A DNA stretch of 61,942 nucleotides from contig JANMQV010000148.1 of the NCBI GenBank assembly GCA_031370645.1, positions 1-61,942 on the forward strand, written 5' to 3'. Source of the DNA: Candidatus Eiseniibacteriota bacterium (GTDB lineage Bacteria > Eisenbacteria > RBG-16-71-46 > SZUA-252). Both the position numbers and the translations under genes were made by a program. The notes beneath the pieces were generated by a model. That model was not told where the DNA came from. It did no database searches and saw nothing but the letters and a program-made list of their open reading frames with translations. This document shows positions 45,024-52,118 of the stretch, one piece after another; the first letter of the stretch is position 1, and every line of letters starts with the position of its first letter.

Positions 45024-46247
45024 TCACTCCGTGCGCGGAATGCCCGGTCCGCCCGAGTCGTGCTCCCGTAGCGCGGCATCGATCTCTTCTCGAACGGCCG
45101 CGTCGCGCTCACCTTCCCGCGCGGCGGCAAGCGCGCGCCGGGCCGCGTCGCCTCCGATCCGGCCGAGCGCCCACGCCGCGTGCCCGCGCCCGGTGGCGGT
45201 CGATTCCTCGCGAAGTGCTTTCGCCAGGGCCGGCACGGCGCGGCGGTCGCCCAAGTTTCCGAGGGCCACCGCGACGTTTCGGACGAAGCGGTCACGCCCG
45301 GCGCGCATGAGGGCGGTCCCCTCGTAGCGCGCCGAGAATCCCTCGGTGTCGATCGAGAGAAGCGGGAGGAGCCAGGGCGTCTGCTGACGCGGCCGCTCCG
45401 CGAATTCCGCTTCGTAGGTTGGGGTGGCGAAACGGTTCCAGGGGCACGCCTCCTGGCAATCGTCGCAGCCGAAGATTCGTACCCCGATGGCGCTCCGCAT
45501 CTCCCGCGGAATCGCGCCGGCGTGCTCGATCGTGAGATACGAGATGCAGCGCCGGGCGTCCACCTGGTAGGGGGCCACGATGGCCCCGGTGGGGCAGGCG
45601 GGAATGCAGCGGGAGCAGCGGCCGCAATGATTTCGGGCTGGCTCCGCGACCGGGAGGAGGACGTCGCAGACGAGCTCGCCGAGGAAGTGCCACGAACCGA
45701 CGCCCTGGCGGATGAGATTTCCGTTCTTGCCGATCCACCCGAGCCCCGAGCGTTCGGCCCATCCCCGCTCGAGGATCGGCCCGCTATCGACGTACGCGCG
45801 CCACGTGGCGCCCGGGCGAAGCGACTCGAGCGCCCGCCCCAGGCGATTCAGCCGCCGTTTCAACCGGCCATGATAGTCGCGCCCCCAGGCGTAGCGCGCG
45901 ACACGTCCGCGTAGCGCCGGGGAGCGTCCCTCCACCGCTGTCTCCTCCGGCCAGTCGCCCCGATAGTACGAAGCAAGGAGCGAGACGACGGTCAACGCGC
46001 CCGGCAGGAGGCGTCGCGGATCGGAGCGGCGCTCCGGCTCCCGCGCCATCCAGCGCATCGTGCCGTGGCGTCCTTCGGTGAGCCAGGCCGCGAGGCGCTC
46101 GGCGTGCGGATGTTCGGTGGCGCTCGCGAATCCGATGGCTTCGAATCCGAGCGAAAGCGACGCCTCGCGGAGGGCGCTCGCGAGCCCTTCGGGTGTGCTA
46201 GCATCCGTCCGTGTCGGGCGAATTCGAATTGCAGCCGGTTTTTCCAC
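45024..46247 (-). CDS. queG: Epoxyqueuosine reductase
   Basis: ARYAWGRDYH, VDSGPILER, GWIGKN, CGRCSRCIPACP, RCISYLTIE, GCDDCQEACP, HEAT-like tail. Start codon uncertain. Confidence 0.93.
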   Translation of the reverse strand: MEKPAAIRIRPTRTDASTPEGLASALREASLSLGFEAIGFASATEHPHAERLAAWLTEGRHGTMRWMAREPERRSDPRRLLPGALTVVSLLASYYRGDWPEETAVEGRSPALRGRVARYAWGRDYHGRLKRRLNRLGRALESLRPGATWRAYVDSGPILERGWAERSGLGWIGKNGNLIRQGVGSWHFLGELVCDVLLPVAEPARNHCGRCSRCIPACPTGAIVAPYQVDARRCISYLTIEHAGAIPREMRSAIGVRIFGCDDCQEACPWNRFATPTYEAEFAERPRQQTPWLLPLLSIDTEGFSARYEGTALMRAGRDRFVRNVAVALGNLGDRRAVPALAKALREESTATGRGHAAWALGRIGGDAARRALAAAREGERDAAVREEIDAALREHDSGGPGIPRTE

Positions 46248-46882
46248 TCCCAAACGTCGTCCTCTTTCCGCGGGCGATCCTGCCGCTCCACATCTTCGAG
46301 CCGCGCTATCGGACGATGATCGCCGATGTGCTGGGCGGCGGCCAGACGCTCGTGATCGCGCTCCTGAAGCAGGGCTGGGAGCAGGAGTACTACGGGAGCC
46401 CCGACGCCCACTCGATCGGCTGTCTCGGGCGCGTGGTTCAGCACCACAAACTCCCCGACGGCCGCTACAACATCATGCTCCACGGCGAGCAGAAGGTCTT
46501 CCTGGAACGATTCGACCGTCACGAGCCCTACCGCATCGCCCGCGTCCGTCACGTGGACGAGGACCTTTCGTGGGCGGCGGAATCGGGTGCGGCGGCGATG
46601 GCGTCCGAACTGATCGAACTCTATCGGCGCGCCCACCAGAAGCAGGGAACGTCCCTCGATCTCGCGCATCTCCTCGGGCCACACGTCAGTCCCGAGACGG
46701 TGGTAAACACGATCGCCATGAACGTGGAGGGTGACGCGGAGGTCCGTCAGCAGCTCCTGGAGCTCGATCGACTGGAATTGAGATTCCGCGCCCTTCACCA
46801 ACTGCTCCGCGAATCGGGCCGCACCCAGGACGTCATCGACCGGGTCCGGCATCTCTACCCCAAAGACTCCCGTCGGAACTAG
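46211..46882 (+). CDS. LON peptidase substrate-binding (N-terminal) domain protein
   Basis: PVFPLPNVVLFP...PLHIFEPRY, DGRYNI, RQQLLE. Confidence 0.9.
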   Translation: MSGEFELQPVFPLPNVVLFPRAILPLHIFEPRYRTMIADVLGGGQTLVIALLKQGWEQEYYGSPDAHSIGCLGRVVQHHKLPDGRYNIMLHGEQKVFLERFDRHEPYRIARVRHVDEDLSWAAESGAAAMASELIELYRRAHQKQGTSLDLAHLLGPHVSPETVVNTIAMNVEGDAEVRQQLLELDRLELRFRALHQLLRESGRTQDVIDRVRHLYPKDSRRN

Positions 46883-46889
46883 GAGCCCC

Positions 46890-47642
46890 ATGAGCCCCAC
46901 GCCTCGCACCGAGAAGCGGGTTGCGCCGACCGCGCCGAAGCGGCCCACGATTCGGACGGTAAAGCGCCCCGCCCCCACCAAGAAGAGCGCCACGCCCCTC
47001 ATCGCCGCGCTCCACCGCGCCTACCCCGACGCGGCCTGCGCGCTCACGCACCACGATCCATTCCAGCTCCTGATCGCCACCATTCTCTCCGCGCAGTGCA
47101 CCGACGTGCGCGTGAACATGGTGACGCCGCTGCTCTTCGCCGCCTATCCCGATGCGGCGGCCATGAGCCGCGCCGGGCAGGAGGAGATCGAAACGATCAT
47201 TCGCTCGACCGGATTTTTCCGGAACAAGGCGAAGTCGATTCGCGGCGCTTCGGCGCGGATTGTGGAGACATTCGGAGGCCGCGTGCCGAAGACGATGGAG
47301 GAACTCCTCACGCTCCCCGGTGTCGCGCGGAAGACCGCGAATGTCGTCCTCGGTGTCGGCTATGGAATCGCCGCCGGGATCGTGGTCGACACGCACGTGG
47401 AACGGGTTTCGCGGAGGCTCGGCCTCAGCAAGGGGAAGAATCCCGAAGCGATCGAGCGGGAGTTGATGGGTGCCGTGCCGCGTGAGGAGTGGATTGCTTT
47501 CTCTCACCTCCTCATCGACCACGGACGGCAAGTTTGCCGGGCGAGGAAGCCGGCGTGCGAGCGCTGTCCGGTCGCCTCGTTCTGTCCGAGTGCCCACTAC
47601 TTTCTGGCCGGCGGGGTGCCGCCCGCGGAGCGGAAGAAGTGA
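46890..47642 (+). CDS. nth: Endonuclease III
   Basis: LSAQCTD, LPGVARKTANVV (HhH), VDTHV, CRARKPACERCPVASFC Fe-S motif. Confidence 0.96.
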   Translation: MSPTPRTEKRVAPTAPKRPTIRTVKRPAPTKKSATPLIAALHRAYPDAACALTHHDPFQLLIATILSAQCTDVRVNMVTPLLFAAYPDAAAMSRAGQEEIETIIRSTGFFRNKAKSIRGASARIVETFGGRVPKTMEELLTLPGVARKTANVVLGVGYGIAAGIVVDTHVERVSRRLGLSKGKNPEAIERELMGAVPREEWIAFSHLLIDHGRQVCRARKPACERCPVASFCPSAHYFLAGGVPPAERKK

Positions 47643-48157
47643 GCGCCCGGTCCGGGGACGCCGCGCCGCGATTCGATGTCGCCTTGGTCGGCGGCGGATT
47701 CCGAAGTCTTCCCGACATCGTGGAGCCGGGCGGCGGGATCGTGGTCTTCTTCAAATCGACTTGCGAGACAAGCCGGCTCATCGTTCCGAGGCTCGGTCCC
47801 CTCGCGCGCGCGGTGGCCGATGAAGGAATGCTCTTCCTCGTTGTCGCCCAGGAAGGCGAAGCCGAGGCGCGAAAGGTTCACGAGGAGCTGGGGCTTCCGG
47901 GAACGCTCGCGTGGGAAAGCGCACCCTATCCCGCCTCGGCCGACTACGACGTTCGCTCGGTGCCGACGCTCTTCGTCATCGACGGTGCCGGCGTGATCGC
48001 GGAGCGGCTGGAAGGGTTCATGAAGCGCGAATATCTTGCCCTCGGTGCCGCCATCGAACAGGCGCTCGCGCTCGGAGACATCCCGCCCATTCTGGAGCGC
48101 GCCGAGGAACTCCCCGAATTCAAACCGGGATGAAGCTCGCGATCGGCCGCCGGGTAG
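47639..48157 (+). CDS. Thioredoxin-fold (AhpC/TSA, TlpA-like) protein, probable selenoprotein with UGA=Sec at 48131-48133
   Basis: FFKSTCETS (CxxS), SVPTLFVID. GTG 47639 overlaps the nth stop. Readthrough gives ...KPG-U-SSRSAAG* ending at TAG 48155-48157; without recoding the CDS ends at 48133. Confidence 0.75.
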
Positions 48158-48168
48158 CGGCCACGCGG
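48137..48168 (+). other. Bacterial SECIS-like stem-loop
   Basis: TCGCG-ATC-GGCCGC-[CGGGTA]-GCGGCC-A-CGCGG. The loop begins 17 nt after the TGA and has G at its second position. Confidence 0.6.
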
Positions 48169-48185
48169 ATGACTGGGAGGAAGCG

Positions 48186-48899
48186 ATGAATCGGAAGTGG
48201 GGCGTCACGATCACCTGGTTCGGGCATGCGACCGTGCTCTACACGGACGTGAAGGGGAGGAACTACCTCGTCGATCCCTGGATCGAGAAGAATCCCGCTT
48301 CACCGCCCGCGGCGAAGTCGCTCGCCCGGCTCGACGCCATCCTCGTGACGCACGGTCACTCCGATCACATCGGAGACGTGATCCCGTTGGCCAAGAAATT
48401 CGCCTGCGAGATCATCTGCATTCACGAGATCTACCAGTACCTGAGCCGGAAGGGCGTGGAGAAGGTGGAGGGGATGAACAAAGGCGGCACCCTTGAAGCT
48501 GCCGGCGTGAAGGCGACGATGGTGCATGCGATCCACTCGAGCAGCATCGTCGAAGGGGACCAGAGCATCTACGCGGGAGAGGCGTGCGGCTACGTGCTCG
48601 AATTCGAAGGGGGCACGCGCGTCTATCACGCGGGGGACACTGGCGTCTTCGGCGACATGAAGTTGATCGGCGAACTCTACCGCCCTTCGATCGCGGTCCT
48701 TCCGATCGGCGATCTCTACACGATGGGCCCGCGCGAAGCCGCCGCCGCCGCGCGGATGATCGGCGCGAAAGCGATCGTGCCGATTCACCATTCGACATTC
48801 CCGGGGCTTCCGGGGACTCCAGAGAAACTCCGCGCGGAGTTAGTTGACCGCCCGGAGATCGAGGTCGTCGCTCTGAAGCCGGGGGAGAGCGCTTCGTAG
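48186..48899 (+). CDS. Metal-dependent hydrolase, metallo-beta-lactamase fold (UPF0173-like)
   Basis: WFGHA, THGHSDH, HSS, YHAGDT, PIGDLYTM. SD GGGAGG before ATG 48186. Confidence 0.92.
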   Translation: MNRKWGVTITWFGHATVLYTDVKGRNYLVDPWIEKNPASPPAAKSLARLDAILVTHGHSDHIGDVIPLAKKFACEIICIHEIYQYLSRKGVEKVEGMNKGGTLEAAGVKATMVHAIHSSSIVEGDQSIYAGEACGYVLEFEGGTRVYHAGDTGVFGDMKLIGELYRPSIAVLPIGDLYTMGPREAAAAARMIGAKAIVPIHHSTFPGLPGTPEKLRAELVDRPEIEVVALKPGESAS

Positions 48900-48909
48900 G
48901 AAACGCGAA

Positions 48910-50409
48910 TCAGTCGGCGTAGACGCGTTCCAAACGGCCGCTCGGGCCGATCCGGAACACTTTCCGCTCCAGGAAGAGGGAGCGCGCCGAACGACCCGCA
49001 TCCTTCCCGAACGCCACGGCGCCGCGGCGAAACCACGGACCGAGCCACCGCGTCACTTCGCCCGCGGTCGGATCGCGCCGAGCGACGAGGGCCATCCCCT
49101 CGACGTCTCCCCTCGGGTCGCGCGTCAGCGTGCAGCCGCACGCAATCTCCACGCCTACAACGCCCCGTACGCCAAGCGCCGGGTGGCGCGCCAGGACCGT
49201 GTGGCGGTGGACCAACTGCTCGCGGACCCCCCCGCCGACGCGCGCCGGCCACGCCGTGCGCTCGAGACGCGCGCCGCTCGGGAGCGCGAGCGCGGCGCGA
49301 AGCGCGGCGACCCCTCCGGGAAGGTCGGGGTCGAGGGAACGAAGCGACGTGTAGCGATCGGCCCGCTTCGACCCGCGGGGAAGCCGAATGCCATGCCGCG
49401 CGAACGCGCGCGTGATGGCGGGGGCCGAAGCACCGCCCGTCTCGGCGTGATCGACCTCCAGCATCCGCGCCGCAAGGGCCGCCGCGCGCGCTTCGCCCGG
49501 TGGTGCGGTCTCCACCGCGCGAGCGAGGAGCCGTCCCGCGCGCCTCCGTGCCACCTCGACCAGTTCCGCCCCGCCACCTTCCTTCAGTCCGGCCGCCAGC
49601 AATTCCATCAGGAGGTGATAGAACGCGCCGGTAAAGACGCGCGAGAAGGAGTGCGGTTCCGAAGTGAGCGTCTCGTCTCCGCCGGTCGCGGGGAGTTTCT
49701 CCGGCGAGCCGTAGCGAAAGCGATTGTTCGCATCCCGGAGCCGCGTCGGATCGGCAATCGATTCCGGGCCGTAATTGTCGTGAATGGCGCGTCCCAGCGC
49801 TTCGGCCAGCCGCGAGACGAGATTGCTCGCGCGGAGACTCTTCCCGGCTTCTTCCAGAAACGCGCGGCGCACGGACGGCTCGCCGAGCGTGACGAGCAGG
49901 GAAGAGCAGTCGGCGAACGCCTCGTGAAACGCCGCGGTTTCCGGATCGGGGAGCGACCAGTAACCCGGCTGATAGACGTCGAGCACGGCGTGCCCCGCCT
50001 CGTGCGCCACGATATCGAGGCTTTCCGCCGCGTAGACCGGCCGGCCCGTGACGCGATCGGTGTCGAAGAAGAATTGGAGGCTCTTCCGGTCGTAGAAGGC
50101 GTTCAGGTCCCGCCCCGCGCGAAGTCTCACGCGAAGGGCCGCGCCGGAGTGCCAGGCGGCGAAGTCGCGATCGAAAAACTCCTCCCAAACGCGAATCGTC
50201 CGCGCGAGCGACGCCTCTCCCTGCCACTGCTGGAACGCGAGCGTCCCGGGCGCGTAGGGCGCGGGGGCGTAGCGGCGTCCTTCGATCACGTATGCGGGAT
50301 CGCCCTGCAGGTGCGTCGGGGAGGGGACATCTTGAAGCCCGACGGTCGCGTCGGGATCGTTCGGGTAGAAGCGGATGACGCCACGCTTTTGACTGGAGCG
50401 GCGAGTCAC
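48910..50409 (-). CDS. Gluzincin metallopeptidase (M4/M36-like)
   Basis: NAFY, DIVAHEAGHAVLD (HExxH), FHEAFAD (third ligand), EPHSFS. Start overlaps the polX stop (GTGA). No evident signal peptide. Confidence 0.8.
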   Translation of the reverse strand: MTRRSSQKRGVIRFYPNDPDATVGLQDVPSPTHLQGDPAYVIEGRRYAPAPYAPGTLAFQQWQGEASLARTIRVWEEFFDRDFAAWHSGAALRVRLRAGRDLNAFYDRKSLQFFFDTDRVTGRPVYAAESLDIVAHEAGHAVLDVYQPGYWSLPDPETAAFHEAFADCSSLLVTLGEPSVRRAFLEEAGKSLRASNLVSRLAEALGRAIHDNYGPESIADPTRLRDANNRFRYGSPEKLPATGGDETLTSEPHSFSRVFTGAFYHLLMELLAAGLKEGGGAELVEVARRRAGRLLARAVETAPPGEARAAALAARMLEVDHAETGGASAPAITRAFARHGIRLPRGSKRADRYTSLRSLDPDLPGGVAALRAALALPSGARLERTAWPARVGGGVREQLVHRHTVLARHPALGVRGVVGVEIACGCTLTRDPRGDVEGMALVARRDPTAGEVTRWLGPWFRRGAVAFGKDAGRSARSLFLERKVFRIGPSGRLERVYAD

Positions 50410-52118
50410 CGCCGCGCCCCGAAGAGAGCGAGCAGCTTCTCGGCGGAGAGGGTATTCACGATGTCCTTCTTCGTGAGCCACGCCTTTCGCGCCACGCCGA
50501 TGCCGTAGCGGTGGTCGTCGTATCCGCTCACGTGATGAGCGTCGGGGTTGACGGCGAAACGGGCGCCCCGCTCCTTCCCGGCGCGCGCCTCCCTCCAGTC
50601 GAGATCGAGGCGGTGCGGGTTCGCGTTGATCTCCACCACCACGCCCTCTTCAGCCGCCACGCGCACCACTTCCTGAATATTCACCTTGTAGGAGTCGCGC
50701 TGGAGGAGAAGGCGTCCGGTCGGATGGGCGAGGATCGAGACGTGCTTGTTTCGGAGCGCCTTGATCATCCGCTCGGTCATCGCCTCCTCGCTCATCGTGA
50801 AGTTCGTGTGGATGGAGGCGACGACGTAGTCGAGCCGCTCGAGTACCCGGTCGGGGTAGTCGAGCGTGCCATCCGGGAGGATGTCGACTTCGGAGCCTTT
50901 GAGAATCCGGAGCTTCTTTGACTTCGCGTTCCAGCGATCGATCTCGTCCCCCTGCCGCTTCAGCTCGGCCTCGGAGAGGCCGTTCGCGTAGCGCGCGGTC
51001 GCCGAGTGGTCGGCGATGCCGAGATACTCGGCTCCCCAGACCGCCGCCGCCTCGGCCATCTCCTCGAGCGTCGACTTCCCATCGCTGGCGGTCGTGTGGC
51101 AGTGGAGAATCCCGCGCAGGTCTTGAAGCGTCACGAGTTTCGGGAGCGTCTTTTCTTCCGCCGCCTCAATCTCGCCGTGGTCCTCACGAAGCTCCGGCTC
51201 GATATAGGCGAGGCCGAGGACCCGAAACAGGTTCTCCTCGTCCTTGATGGCGGCGTGCCGCTTCCCGCTCAGCTCGTATTCGTTGAGACTCATGCCGCGC
51301 TCCAGCGCGCGAGAGCGGATGCGGATGTTGTGCGCCACGCTCCCCGTGAAGTAGTGGAGCGCGAAGGGAAATTCGGCCGGCTTCACGAGCCGGAGATCGA
51401 CCGCCAGCCCCGAGGGGAGGCGGATCGACGTCTTCGTCTCACCGCTTCCGATGATCGACGCCTGGGGCGCGAGTGCCAGGAACGCCTTCGTGACGACGGC
51501 GGGCTTCATCGTGGCGACGAGGAGGTCGACGTCCTTCGCCGTCTCGGCCCAACGGCGGAGGCTTCCGCCGATTTCGATCCGTTCGACCGCGGCGTGGTCG
51601 CGAAGCGCCTCGGCCAGTTCCTCGGCGATCGGGCGGACCTCGCTCATCAAGTAACGGCCGGCGCCCGCCTCCAGGAGGGCGATCCCCTCCAAAATCTTCT
51701 TCTCCGACTGCTCGCCGAAGCCCTTCAGTTCCCGAATCTCACCCTTCTCGGCGGCGCGCTTCAATTTCGCGAGGGTCGTGATGCCGAGTTCCTCGCCGAG
51801 CGCGCGGACCTTCTTCGCGCCGAGGCCCGGAACCCGGATCATCTCGAGGTATCCGGGCGGCGTGGAAGCCGTCAGATCGTCGTAATACTTCATGCGGCCG
51901 CTCTTCCAGAGCTCCCGGATGTTTCCGGCCAACGCCTCCCCGATCCCCTTGAGTTCGGTCAACGTGCCGGCCTCGACGCGCGCGCCGAGATCGTCCGTCA
52001 GTCCGTCGATGATGCGCGAGGCGTTCTGGTAGGCCCGGACCTTGAACGGATTCTCTCCGTTCAATTCCAGGAGGACGGCGATTTCGTCGAGGATGCGGGC
52101 GACGTCGCGCTTGTCCAT
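50406..52118 (-). CDS. polX: DNA polymerase X with PHP domain
   Basis: ENPFKVRAY, HhH motifs, GSLRR, KDVD, HYFTGS, HCHTTASDG, DHS, HPTGR, DAH. Confidence 0.95.
   Translation of the reverse strand: MDKRDVARILDEIAVLLELNGENPFKVRAYQNASRIIDGLTDDLGARVEAGTLTELKGIGEALAGNIRELWKSGRMKYYDDLTASTPPGYLEMIRVPGLGAKKVRALGEELGITTLAKLKRAAEKGEIRELKGFGEQSEKKILEGIALLEAGAGRYLMSEVRPIAEELAEALRDHAAVERIEIGGSLRRWAETAKDVDLLVATMKPAVVTKAFLALAPQASIIGSGETKTSIRLPSGLAVDLRLVKPAEFPFALHYFTGSVAHNIRIRSRALERGMSLNEYELSGKRHAAIKDEENLFRVLGLAYIEPELREDHGEIEAAEEKTLPKLVTLQDLRGILHCHTTASDGKSTLEEMAEAAAVWGAEYLGIADHSATARYANGLSEAELKRQGDEIDRWNAKSKKLRILKGSEVDILPDGTLDYPDRVLERLDYVVASIHTNFTMSEEAMTERMIKALRNKHVSILAHPTGRLLLQRDSYKVNIQEVVRVAAEEGVVVEINANPHRLDLDWREARAGKERGARFAVNPDAHHVSGYDDHRYGIGVARKAWLTKKDIVNTLSAEKLLALFGARR

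Follow-up and report, generated by a model that had tools for sequence, protein, structure and literature searches.

Within a 61,942-nucleotide stretch of Candidatus Eiseniibacteriota DNA (contig JANMQV010000148.1; the whole stretch is referred to below as the window), we identified a redoxin gene which, judged from sequence comparison, is with good confidence a mis-annotated selenoprotein gene: its apparent stop codon would encode a selenocysteine (Sec) on a C-terminal arm of the protein, and the associated selenocysteine insertion sequence (SECIS) would overlap the true stop codon. The gene appears to belong to a widespread protein family that is found across several bacterial phyla and is undescribed. 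All database relatives of the Sec form that we examined are 4 to 9 residues short and are without what is likely their key residue, and since there is no NCBIfam model for the family, annotation pipelines cannot repair these entries.

The in-frame UGA and the tail behind it

The frame opened by the GTG at 47639, as read and translated directly, holds 164 codons down to ...EFKPG and then meets a TGA at 48131-48133. Past this codon the same frame runs on through S-S-R-S-A-A-G up to a TAG at 48155-48157, and the readthrough product would have the C-terminus ...LPEFKPG-U-SSRSAAG. A first-pass annotation, made from the letters of the window alone, had described the apparent KPG-TGA stop at 48131 and the SSRSAAG continuation to the TAG at 48155, and direct reading bears out both. 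The features of the gene, all on the forward strand, are the following:

47639..48157, + strand: putative redoxin selenoprotein gene, 172 codons plus stop, GTG start, predicted Sec at residue 165
47762..47773, + strand: active-site codons Cys42-Glu-Thr-Ser45 (CxxS); Cys42 is invariant in the family
48131..48133, + strand: UGA codon, residue 165, preceded by Lys-Pro-Gly; TGA in 32/32 Sec-form loci
48134..48154, + strand: predicted seven-codon tail Ser-Ser-Arg-Ser-Ala-Ala-Gly; its first 11 nt form the SECIS spacer
48155..48157, + strand: predicted true stop TAG, whose first two bases close the loop and whose third opens the 3' arm of the hairpin
48137..48168, + strand: two-tier SECIS-like hairpin, with lower stem 48137-48141/48164-48168, upper stem 48145-48150/48157-48162 and loop 48151-48156

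Both the TGA and the codons behind it recur in the relatives of this gene. A six-frame search of 61 related genomes returned 24 near-full-length matches of 54-85% identity, each with exactly one in-frame TGA and with an alignment that continues through to residue 171-172, in addition to a partial match and a further match, of 30% identity, that has the same feature. At the DNA level, all 25 loci of the bacterial family f1 that reach the C-terminus read [KRQ]PG-TGA, followed by x-S-[RK]-x-x-A-G or a close variant and then by a stop. When the 206 genomes of the phylum were all searched by profile, a full-length redoxin was located in 27 genomes, this one included, and copies cut by contig ends in two more; per genus, the gene was found in 8/8 genomes of g1, 10/10 of g4 and 11/13 of g2 (counting two cut copies), and in 0/10 of g3. 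Two genomes outside f1 that belong to another family (G050 and G100) also carry it. One unpublished genome among the 206 (G112) gave a generic thioredoxin-fold match only, and no claim is built on it.

The Sec-form set that we read as DNA comprises 32 loci, of which 28 come from f1, two from the other family (the same class as those of f1, at ~30% identity) and one each from a Latescibacterota and an Acidobacteriota metagenome-assembled genome (MAG). Locus L037 is cut by a contig end, L040-L042 are unrelated or without a match, and five weak matches with a single TGA (L074-L078) turned out to be ordinary periplasmic-type WCxPC TlpA-like genes with a real stop and were removed from the counts. 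Among the distant members, that of G100 has the active site CPTC and the end KPG-U-MSRNSGS, the Latescibacterota locus (L082) has CGTC and ends EFKPG-U-GSKSAA, and the Acidobacteriota locus (L084) ends FRAG-U-GSKN.

In all 32 loci the TGA is kept after [KRQ]-[PA]-G. Equally constant are tail position +2, which is Ser in 32/32 loci with varying codons (TCG 18, TCC 7, TCT 3, TCA 2, AGT 1, AGC 1), and position +3, which is Lys or Arg in 32/32 with six codons in use; 24 loci have TAG and 8 have TGA as the second, presumed true stop. This pattern indicates that the tail is under selection at the protein level, and since the codons at +1 to +3 sit in the unpaired spacer ahead of the hairpin, RNA structure does not account for their conservation. 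Homologs with TGA or Cys at the site, followed by a conserved x-S-[RK] tail, were what the first-pass annotation had proposed to look for, and such homologs were found; neither homologs ending in KPG plus TAA or TAG without downstream conservation nor an absence of Sec machinery, the two outcomes it had named as refuting, was seen.

The same site is where database proteins end. When 5.8 billion proteins were searched with the readthrough product as the query, all 120 matches listed covered at most 95% of it, with KPG (83), RPG (36) or QPG (1) as their last residues and with redoxin, TlpA family or peroxiredoxin as their labels. A profile search of 1.84 billion protein representatives gave 958 matches at E ≤1e-10; among the best 150 of these 958, to which all counts of representatives refer, 93 end in PG, 109 fit the wider ending [PA]G or [KRQ]xG, and 20 have Cys at the exact site in the form [KRQ]PG-C-x-[S/A]-[K/R]. 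The alignment of representatives holds the 137 of at most 300 amino acids (13 longer ones were omitted), and its Sec column is without a residue in 114 sequences, about six of which are fragments ending earlier, and otherwise holds 19 Cys, 1 Ser and 1 Leu, with 2 gapped. All four distant members of the truncated type that were read as DNA (L039, L073, L082 and L084) have TGA at the site. That relatives stop exactly at the Sec site points to their being shortened by gene callers, as the first-pass annotation had predicted for standard programs: 120/120 matches listed and about 109 of the best 150 representatives stop there.

A direct Sec/Cys pair is formed by a Bryobacterales locus (L083), which reads WRPG-C-SSKN with TGC at the site, and the 40%-identical Acidobacteriota locus L084, which reads FRAG-U-GSKN with TGA. 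The first-pass annotation had given PG-C-x-S as the end of related proteins, in keeping with L083 and with the [KRQ]PG-C-x-[S/A] form of 20 proteins among the best 150 representatives. Long Cys-form proteins (257-518 amino acids) contain no further Pfam domain. When the redoxin and seven relatives were scored against NCBIfam, no model fitted the family, the matches to ResA, DsbE and thioredoxin models all being below threshold.

The hairpin, the decoding machinery and rival readings of the UGA

The upper stem of the hairpin pairs GGCCGC with GCGGCC over 6 bp, the lower stem has 5 bp and the loop is CGGGUA. Counted from the UGA, the upper stem begins at 11 nt and the loop at 17 nt, which agrees with the two-tier hairpin and the CGGGTA loop placed 17 nt past the TGA by the first-pass annotation. 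According to PMC8659212, the upper stem-loop of the E. coli SECIS spans 17 nt, lies 11 nt from the UGA and has G23 and U24 in its loop, and PMC10778597 gives 16-37 nt as the bacterial range for the distance between UGA and SECIS loop. The SECIS of selD in this genome matches the redoxin hairpin in geometry (11-nt spacer, stem of 6-7 bp, loop 17 nt past the UGA). In the redoxin, the SelB protein carrying Sec-tRNA(Sec) would bind the stem-loop that begins 11 nt past the UGA; as the Sec codon lies only seven codons from the end, the SECIS would straddle the real stop and extend into the 3' untranslated region.

The hairpin is present in 30/30 loci with its loop 16-20 nt past the UGA, and with the MAG loci, where the loop starts at 19 nt (L082) and 21 nt (L084), a SECIS-like hairpin at a proper distance (16-21 nt) is found in 32/32 Sec-form loci. 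The stems are unrelated between lineages (GGCCGC, GCCGUCA, CAGCGGUU, GCCGCCU and GGCGCCG, all except the GGCCGC of this locus coming from four distant members), while their distance from the UGA is kept, and GU occurs in all loop types (CGGGUA, AGUUG twice, CGUGA and GGUC). Among close orthologs 85.3% of cells are paired, and the covariation score of 0.173, compared with 0.100 in shuffles, was matched by 1/500 shuffles. The 3' arm, though it lies past the true stop, is nearly invariant, and the bases after it diverge. The Cys-form locus L083 has no hairpin (minimum free energy -6.7, z +0.86). A search of positions 48050-48250 against Rfam at E ≤10 gave chance-level matches only and no SECIS family. 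The loci are natural bacterial examples of candidate SECIS elements lying across or behind the true stop.

The genome itself encodes the machinery for selenocysteine. We found a canonical tRNA-Sec (67.5 bits; called SeC with anticodon tca by ARAGORN), SelA (480 bits), the SelB wing domain within a 640-codon frame, and a SelD with an in-frame TGA at the canonical Sec site, SCAG-U-AAK; the selA, selB, selD and tRNA-Sec genes that the first-pass annotation had suggested looking for are all in this genome. The selD gene lies at C103:5013-6150 with its TGA at C103:5043, and the canonical tRNA-Sec gene follows ~120 nt downstream with its G-CCA end encoded. Across the genomes of family f1, SelA was found in 37/41 and tRNA-Sec in 39/41, and tRNA-Sec was present in five further genomes (G050, G100 and three where SelA was missed). 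In this 95%-complete genome, a search for the formate dehydrogenase alpha subunit (TIGR01553) gave no match at E ≤1e-10, which suggests that the Sec trait is kept here by other selenoproteins; those seen so far are SelD and the redoxin. The redoxin would be a selenoprotein from Candidatus Eisenbacteria, an uncultured and little-known lineage with Sec machinery.

Outside the window lies another tRNA-Sec-like gene of this genome, divergent from the canonical one and with the anticodon UCA (contig C167:16685-16779; L002:1501-1595, - strand). It scores 64.5 bits against the Rfam tRNA-Sec model and is ~50% identical to the canonical copy; in the Rfam alignment its acceptor stem has 8 bp and its T stem 4 bp, a C comes after the acceptor stem, and CCA does not follow directly. 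A beta-carbonic-anhydrase-like open reading frame (ORF) adjoins it, and no sel genes lie beside it. Similar second copies of 59-63 bits occur in G003, G004, G005, G007 and G029. This gene could be an allo-tRNA or a SelC*-like species.

Several observations weigh against the reading proposed here. The ordinary TGA stop of the neighbouring endonuclease III gene (nth) is likewise TGA in 25/25 loci, so that conservation of the TGA by itself proves little; the stop of the downstream gene, by contrast, varies (TAG 16, TGA 3, TAA 1). The folding energy of the hairpin equals that of shuffles (z 0.06; z -0.45 in a second fold), and among the 3274 TGA codons that close frames of at least 200 codons in this 66% G+C genome, 306 (9.3%) precede a perfect stem of at least 6 bp with the same geometry, a background that amounts to 666 (20.3%) for stems of at least 5 bp. 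The hairpin is therefore unexceptional in a single sequence, and the case rests on the comparison with relatives. In that comparison, at least six perfect pairs form in only 23/30 loci, with five pairs in five and four pairs in two, where an A-C mismatch interrupts the helix, and the covariation among close orthologs is modest, 3/6 pairs changing on both sides, in 4 cells. The machinery discriminates poorly as well: the Cys-form genome G207 also has SelA, showing that Cys forms are not restricted to organisms without Sec, and 9/10 genomes of genus g3 have SelA yet are without the redoxin, which together render co-occurrence with Sec machinery non-discriminating. If the second UCA tRNA-Sec-like gene were of the Cys-accepting SelC* type, some decoding of UGA could give Cys. 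Finally, most of the distant members have a CxxC active site, so the tail residue is no simple replacement for a resolving Cys.

Part of this evidence would suit another explanation, in which the TGA at 48131 is an ordinary stop and the protein has 164 residues and ends in KPG. The hairpin would then be an RNA element of the intergenic region, serving for example to stabilise the transcript or to regulate the metallo-beta-lactamase-fold gene downstream, and the tail conservation would be its by-product. The unremarkable stability of the hairpin, the 9.3% of TGA codons closing long frames that are followed by such hairpins and the constant TGA of nth all fit this explanation, as does the observation that in several loci the lower stem or the 3' flank reaches the ribosome-binding site of the next gene. 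An intergenic element, however, is hard to reconcile with an x-Ser-[Lys/Arg] tail that is kept in the unpaired spacer through synonymous and conservative changes using all six Ser codons, or with Cys-form homologs whose frame continues unbroken into the same x-[S/A]-[K/R] motif. The hairpin is, moreover, retained in five f1 loci without the downstream metallo-beta-lactamase-fold gene and in other phyla with different neighbours, and no terminator-like site was found at the locus. We consider an ordinary stop very improbable, and we regard it as very likely that the UGA at 48131-48133 is recoded and the tail translated.

Which residue is inserted is a separate question. The UGA might be recoded mostly or partly to another residue, either Cys, through a SelC*-type, tRNA-ReC-like and SelB-delivered tRNA, or Trp, through near-cognate readthrough. 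There is precedent for the former, as UGA codons followed by a SECIS are read as Cys by SelC* tRNAs (PMC13582414), and the second divergent UCA tRNA-Sec-like gene of this genome and its counterparts in five further genomes of the family would be candidates for such a role. The base after its acceptor stem is C, however, where PMC13582414 gives U as the criterion for tRNA-ReC; 35/41 genomes have only the canonical tRNA-Sec, most of them with a TGA-form redoxin, and the canonical tRNA-Sec, SelA and SelD are all in the present genome. Decoding as another residue thus appears very improbable. Taken together, the 32 loci with TGA, the Cys homologs, the SECIS-like hairpin and the Sec machinery support the identification of the UGA as a selenocysteine codon by the first-pass annotation, and selenocysteine is in our view the likely residue at this position.

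Fold, proposed chemistry and gene neighbourhood

The protein matches Pfam AhpC-TSA (PF00578) at 30.9 bits, above the cut-off of 26, whereas the NCBIfam models for ResA (NF002854, 21.1 bits vs 170) and DsbE (TIGR00385, 15.4 vs 123) stay well below theirs. Its best profile matches among solved structures are ResA 4nmu (2.8e-11) and 3kcm, and the ResA and TlpA-like proteins matched cover only profile positions 2 to ~130. Cys42 and the first CxxC cysteine of ResA share a column in the profile alignment. Cys42 is invariant in alignments of 21 and of 104 sequences, and across the latter the invariant residues are C42, P109 (the cis-Pro), P163 and G164. An AlphaFold2 model built from the 104-sequence alignment has a mean pLDDT of 96.3 and a pTM of 0.92, with a mean pLDDT of 96 for residues 161-170. 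In this model, as assigned by DSSP, the tail forms a beta-hairpin of F161-K162, a turn at P163-G164, and U165-S166, which follows a 17-residue linker after the last helix (129-143). The best VIA-align match of the model is 3gl3_A (Z 18.9, rmsd 1.8, 140 aligned, model residues 2-144), ResA chains reaching Z ~17, as expected of a thioredoxin fold carrying TlpA-type insertions, and no solved chain matches the C-terminal 48 residues by sequence at E ≤10. The N-terminus has no hydrophobic segment, for which reason the redoxin is probably cytoplasmic.

Residues 42-45 are C-E-T-S, in line with the thioredoxin fold and CETS active motif of the first-pass annotation. The CxxC of an ordinary active site is thus not found in this protein, although it occurs in 109/137 aligned representatives (93 truncated, 16 Cys-form). 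Nor does the site resemble the peroxidatic Cys motif P-x-x-x-T-x-x-C given in PMC13188914: the redoxin reads VVFFKSTCETS, without Pro at -7 and with Thr at -1 instead of -3. The first-pass annotation had argued that a CxxS site lacks a resolving Cys, for which the tail Sec would stand in. This argument fits the Eisenbacteria clade and does not extend to most of the distant members, which have CxxC together with Sec or Cys in the tail. Most representatives combine CxxC with the tail site, which points to an independent role for the tail residue beyond that of a stand-in for a lost second Cys.

What might this residue do? In the scheme that we propose, the selenol on the C-terminal arm would be the reactive centre and would cycle via a selenenylsulfide with the invariant Cys42. 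We put an intramolecular Cys42-Sec165 pair at slightly less than even odds. In the wider family, the tail residue may be the substrate-facing nucleophile, recycled by the CxxC, in which case the Eisenbacteria would have reduced this system to a Cys-Sec pair.

It is also conceivable that Sec is inserted and is not paired with Cys42 of the same chain. It might then work alone, as a peroxidatic residue or by binding a metal or chalcogen, enter the active site of a second subunit, or react with a partner protein. In typical two-Cys peroxiredoxins, the resolving Cys reaches the active site of the second subunit. A role beyond replacing a second Cys would agree with the complete CxxC and the Sec/Cys tail found together in most of the distant members. 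An external redox partner is hinted at by a Latescibacterota locus in which a gene for a pyridine-nucleotide disulfide oxidoreductase directly follows the SECIS (L082:1317-2090, + strand; Pyr_redox_2, 6.1e-36); at this single locus, its product is a possible reductase partner. Pairing within the chain is in turn favoured by two observations: Cys42 and P163-G164-U165-x-S167 are the sole invariant or near-invariant sites besides the cis-Pro among the 104 sequences, which suggests a joint function, and the tail is docked on the fold with high confidence in the model. We regard a Sec not paired within its own chain as plausible, if on the doubtful side.

Tentatively, these strands can be joined into one picture: an undescribed multi-phylum family would carry Sec on a beta-hairpin arm, [KR]-P-G-U-x-S-[KR], that swings onto the active-site Cys to form a selenenylsulfide; the Eisenbacteria would have lost the second Cys and kept a Cys-Sec redox pair; the SECIS would lie around or behind the stop; and genomes that have the second tRNA-Sec-like gene might read this UGA as Sec or Cys according to selenium supply.

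The redoxin gene lies between two other genes on the same strand:

46890..47642, + strand: endonuclease III gene (nth), upstream; Pfam HhH-GPD (6.5e-24), HHH and EndIII iron-sulfur domain
48175-48180, + strand: ribosome-binding site GGGAGG of the downstream gene
48175..48899 including the ribosome-binding site, + strand: metallo-beta-lactamase-fold gene, downstream, ATG at 48186; Pfam Lactamase_B_2 (8.8e-32)

The stop codon of nth (TGA) and the GTG that opens the redoxin frame share bases (GTGA), in keeping with the translational coupling to endonuclease III claimed by the first-pass annotation for this locus. The overlap is not a general feature, being found in only 5/24 loci with both genes (L013-L017), with a spacing of ~90-260 nt in the other related loci that have both. 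The nth gene is upstream in 24/25 f1 loci (L013-L037; L038 begins inside the redoxin gene, its nth side being out of view), and the metallo-beta-lactamase-fold gene is downstream in 20/25 f1 loci with the 3' flank in view (L013-L036 and L038). This gene order is confined to family f1; neighbours in other lineages are DUF6933, Pyr_redox_2, Rce1-like and glycosyltransferase genes, and the gene neighbourhood offers no functional lead. The locus is contained in nine DNA sequencing runs from three studies, with no RNA run among those listed.

Further out in the window, a 523-residue ORF at 48910-50481 (- strand) matches no Pfam family at E ≤1e-5, and its translation contains an H-E-A-G-H string of the zinc-metalloprotease-like HExxH type. 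On the other side lie a gene for an epoxyqueuosine reductase QueG with C-terminal HEAT repeats (45024-46253, - strand) and one for a stand-alone LON substrate-binding-domain protein (46211-46882, + strand), whose 5' ends overlap by ~40 nt as listed.

Comparison with known systems

The closest known relatives in fold are the TlpA/ResA/CcmG (DsbE) proteins, with which the redoxin has in common the fold and its core, the alignment of Cys42 with the first Cys of CxxC and the cis-Pro at V108-P109. It differs from them in having no visible N-terminal signal or membrane anchor (MSARSGDAAPRF...), a CxxS active site in this clade, and a C-terminal extension of ~30 residues that would end in Sec; against the ResA model, the redoxin and its relatives score 21-52 bits, compared with a cut-off of 170. 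The only solved chains that align over model residues 1-172 belong to thioredoxin-like proteins with a C-terminal extension, namely 2cvb/2ywo from Thermus thermophilus, 2ywi from Geobacillus kaustophilus and 3u5r from Sinorhizobium meliloti (Z 15.8-16.0, rmsd 2.9-3.1, 153-156 residues aligned, identity 17-21%), and by profile 2ywi matches positions 2-112 only.

Known thioredoxin-fold selenoproteins resemble the redoxin in their thioredoxin- or peroxiredoxin-like fold, their UGA-encoded Sec and a bacterial SECIS right after the UGA. Table 1 of the review PMC13188914 includes among these Sec-thioredoxin, a peroxiredoxin-like thiol:disulfide oxidoreductase, the UxxC redoxin, the WAxxUGC ResA-like and the AhpC/TSA-like UxxS proteins, and in its thioredoxin-fold entries Sec is inside the active-site motif (UxxC, UxxS, UGC or CxxU). 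There, Sec replaces a Cys of the CxxC, whereas the redoxin keeps the Cys and would carry Sec ~120 residues later on its C-terminal arm; the family would thus add thioredoxin-fold proteins with Sec on a C-terminal arm, outside the CxxC site. The 119 families in Table 1 of that 2026 review include no entry with a C-terminal [KR]PG-U-x-S-[KR] motif, and the WAxxUGC model (NF041054) gives 21-35 bits against a cut-off of 300. The VPGUxxT family (NF041383, 287 positions) has the Pro-Gly-Sec string in its name and a thioredoxin-like fold in common with the redoxin; it was considered as an identity and rejected, having no match at the locus and not being listed for the protein at E ≤1. Its matches in the genome are confined to contigs C113, C157 and C110 and reach at most 29 bits against a cut-off of 275. 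No description of the family was found in the literature searched, PMC12013277 included, although the supplementary tables of metagenome selenoproteomes could list it as an unnamed candidate, and our literature search for selenoproteins in Eisenbacteria found nothing.

For the position of Sec, the nearest parallels are the Sec arm of animal thioredoxin reductase and the bacterial "star" selenoproteins (UXX-star and KCU-star), in which Sec is likewise only a few residues from the C-terminus, on a flexible or extended arm, which places the SECIS partly or wholly behind the true stop in bacterial genes of this layout. Such an arrangement is functional in E. coli, where a C-terminal Sec with the SECIS behind the stop works for recombinant thioredoxin reductase (PMC10778597), and the short natural Sec tag seen here (PG-U-x-S-K/R with a hairpin of ~18 nt) might interest those who produce recombinant selenoproteins. 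There is no homology between the redoxin and these families, which have other folds and end in G-C-U-G, U-x-x-stop or K-C-U-stop, as opposed to PG-U-x-S-[KR]. The likeness would instead be one of chemistry, resembling that of the thioredoxin reductase Sec arm or of the resolving residue of two-Cys peroxiredoxins, and, if true, the redoxin would correspond, as a single-domain bacterial protein, to the Sec arm of the animal thioredoxin reductase.

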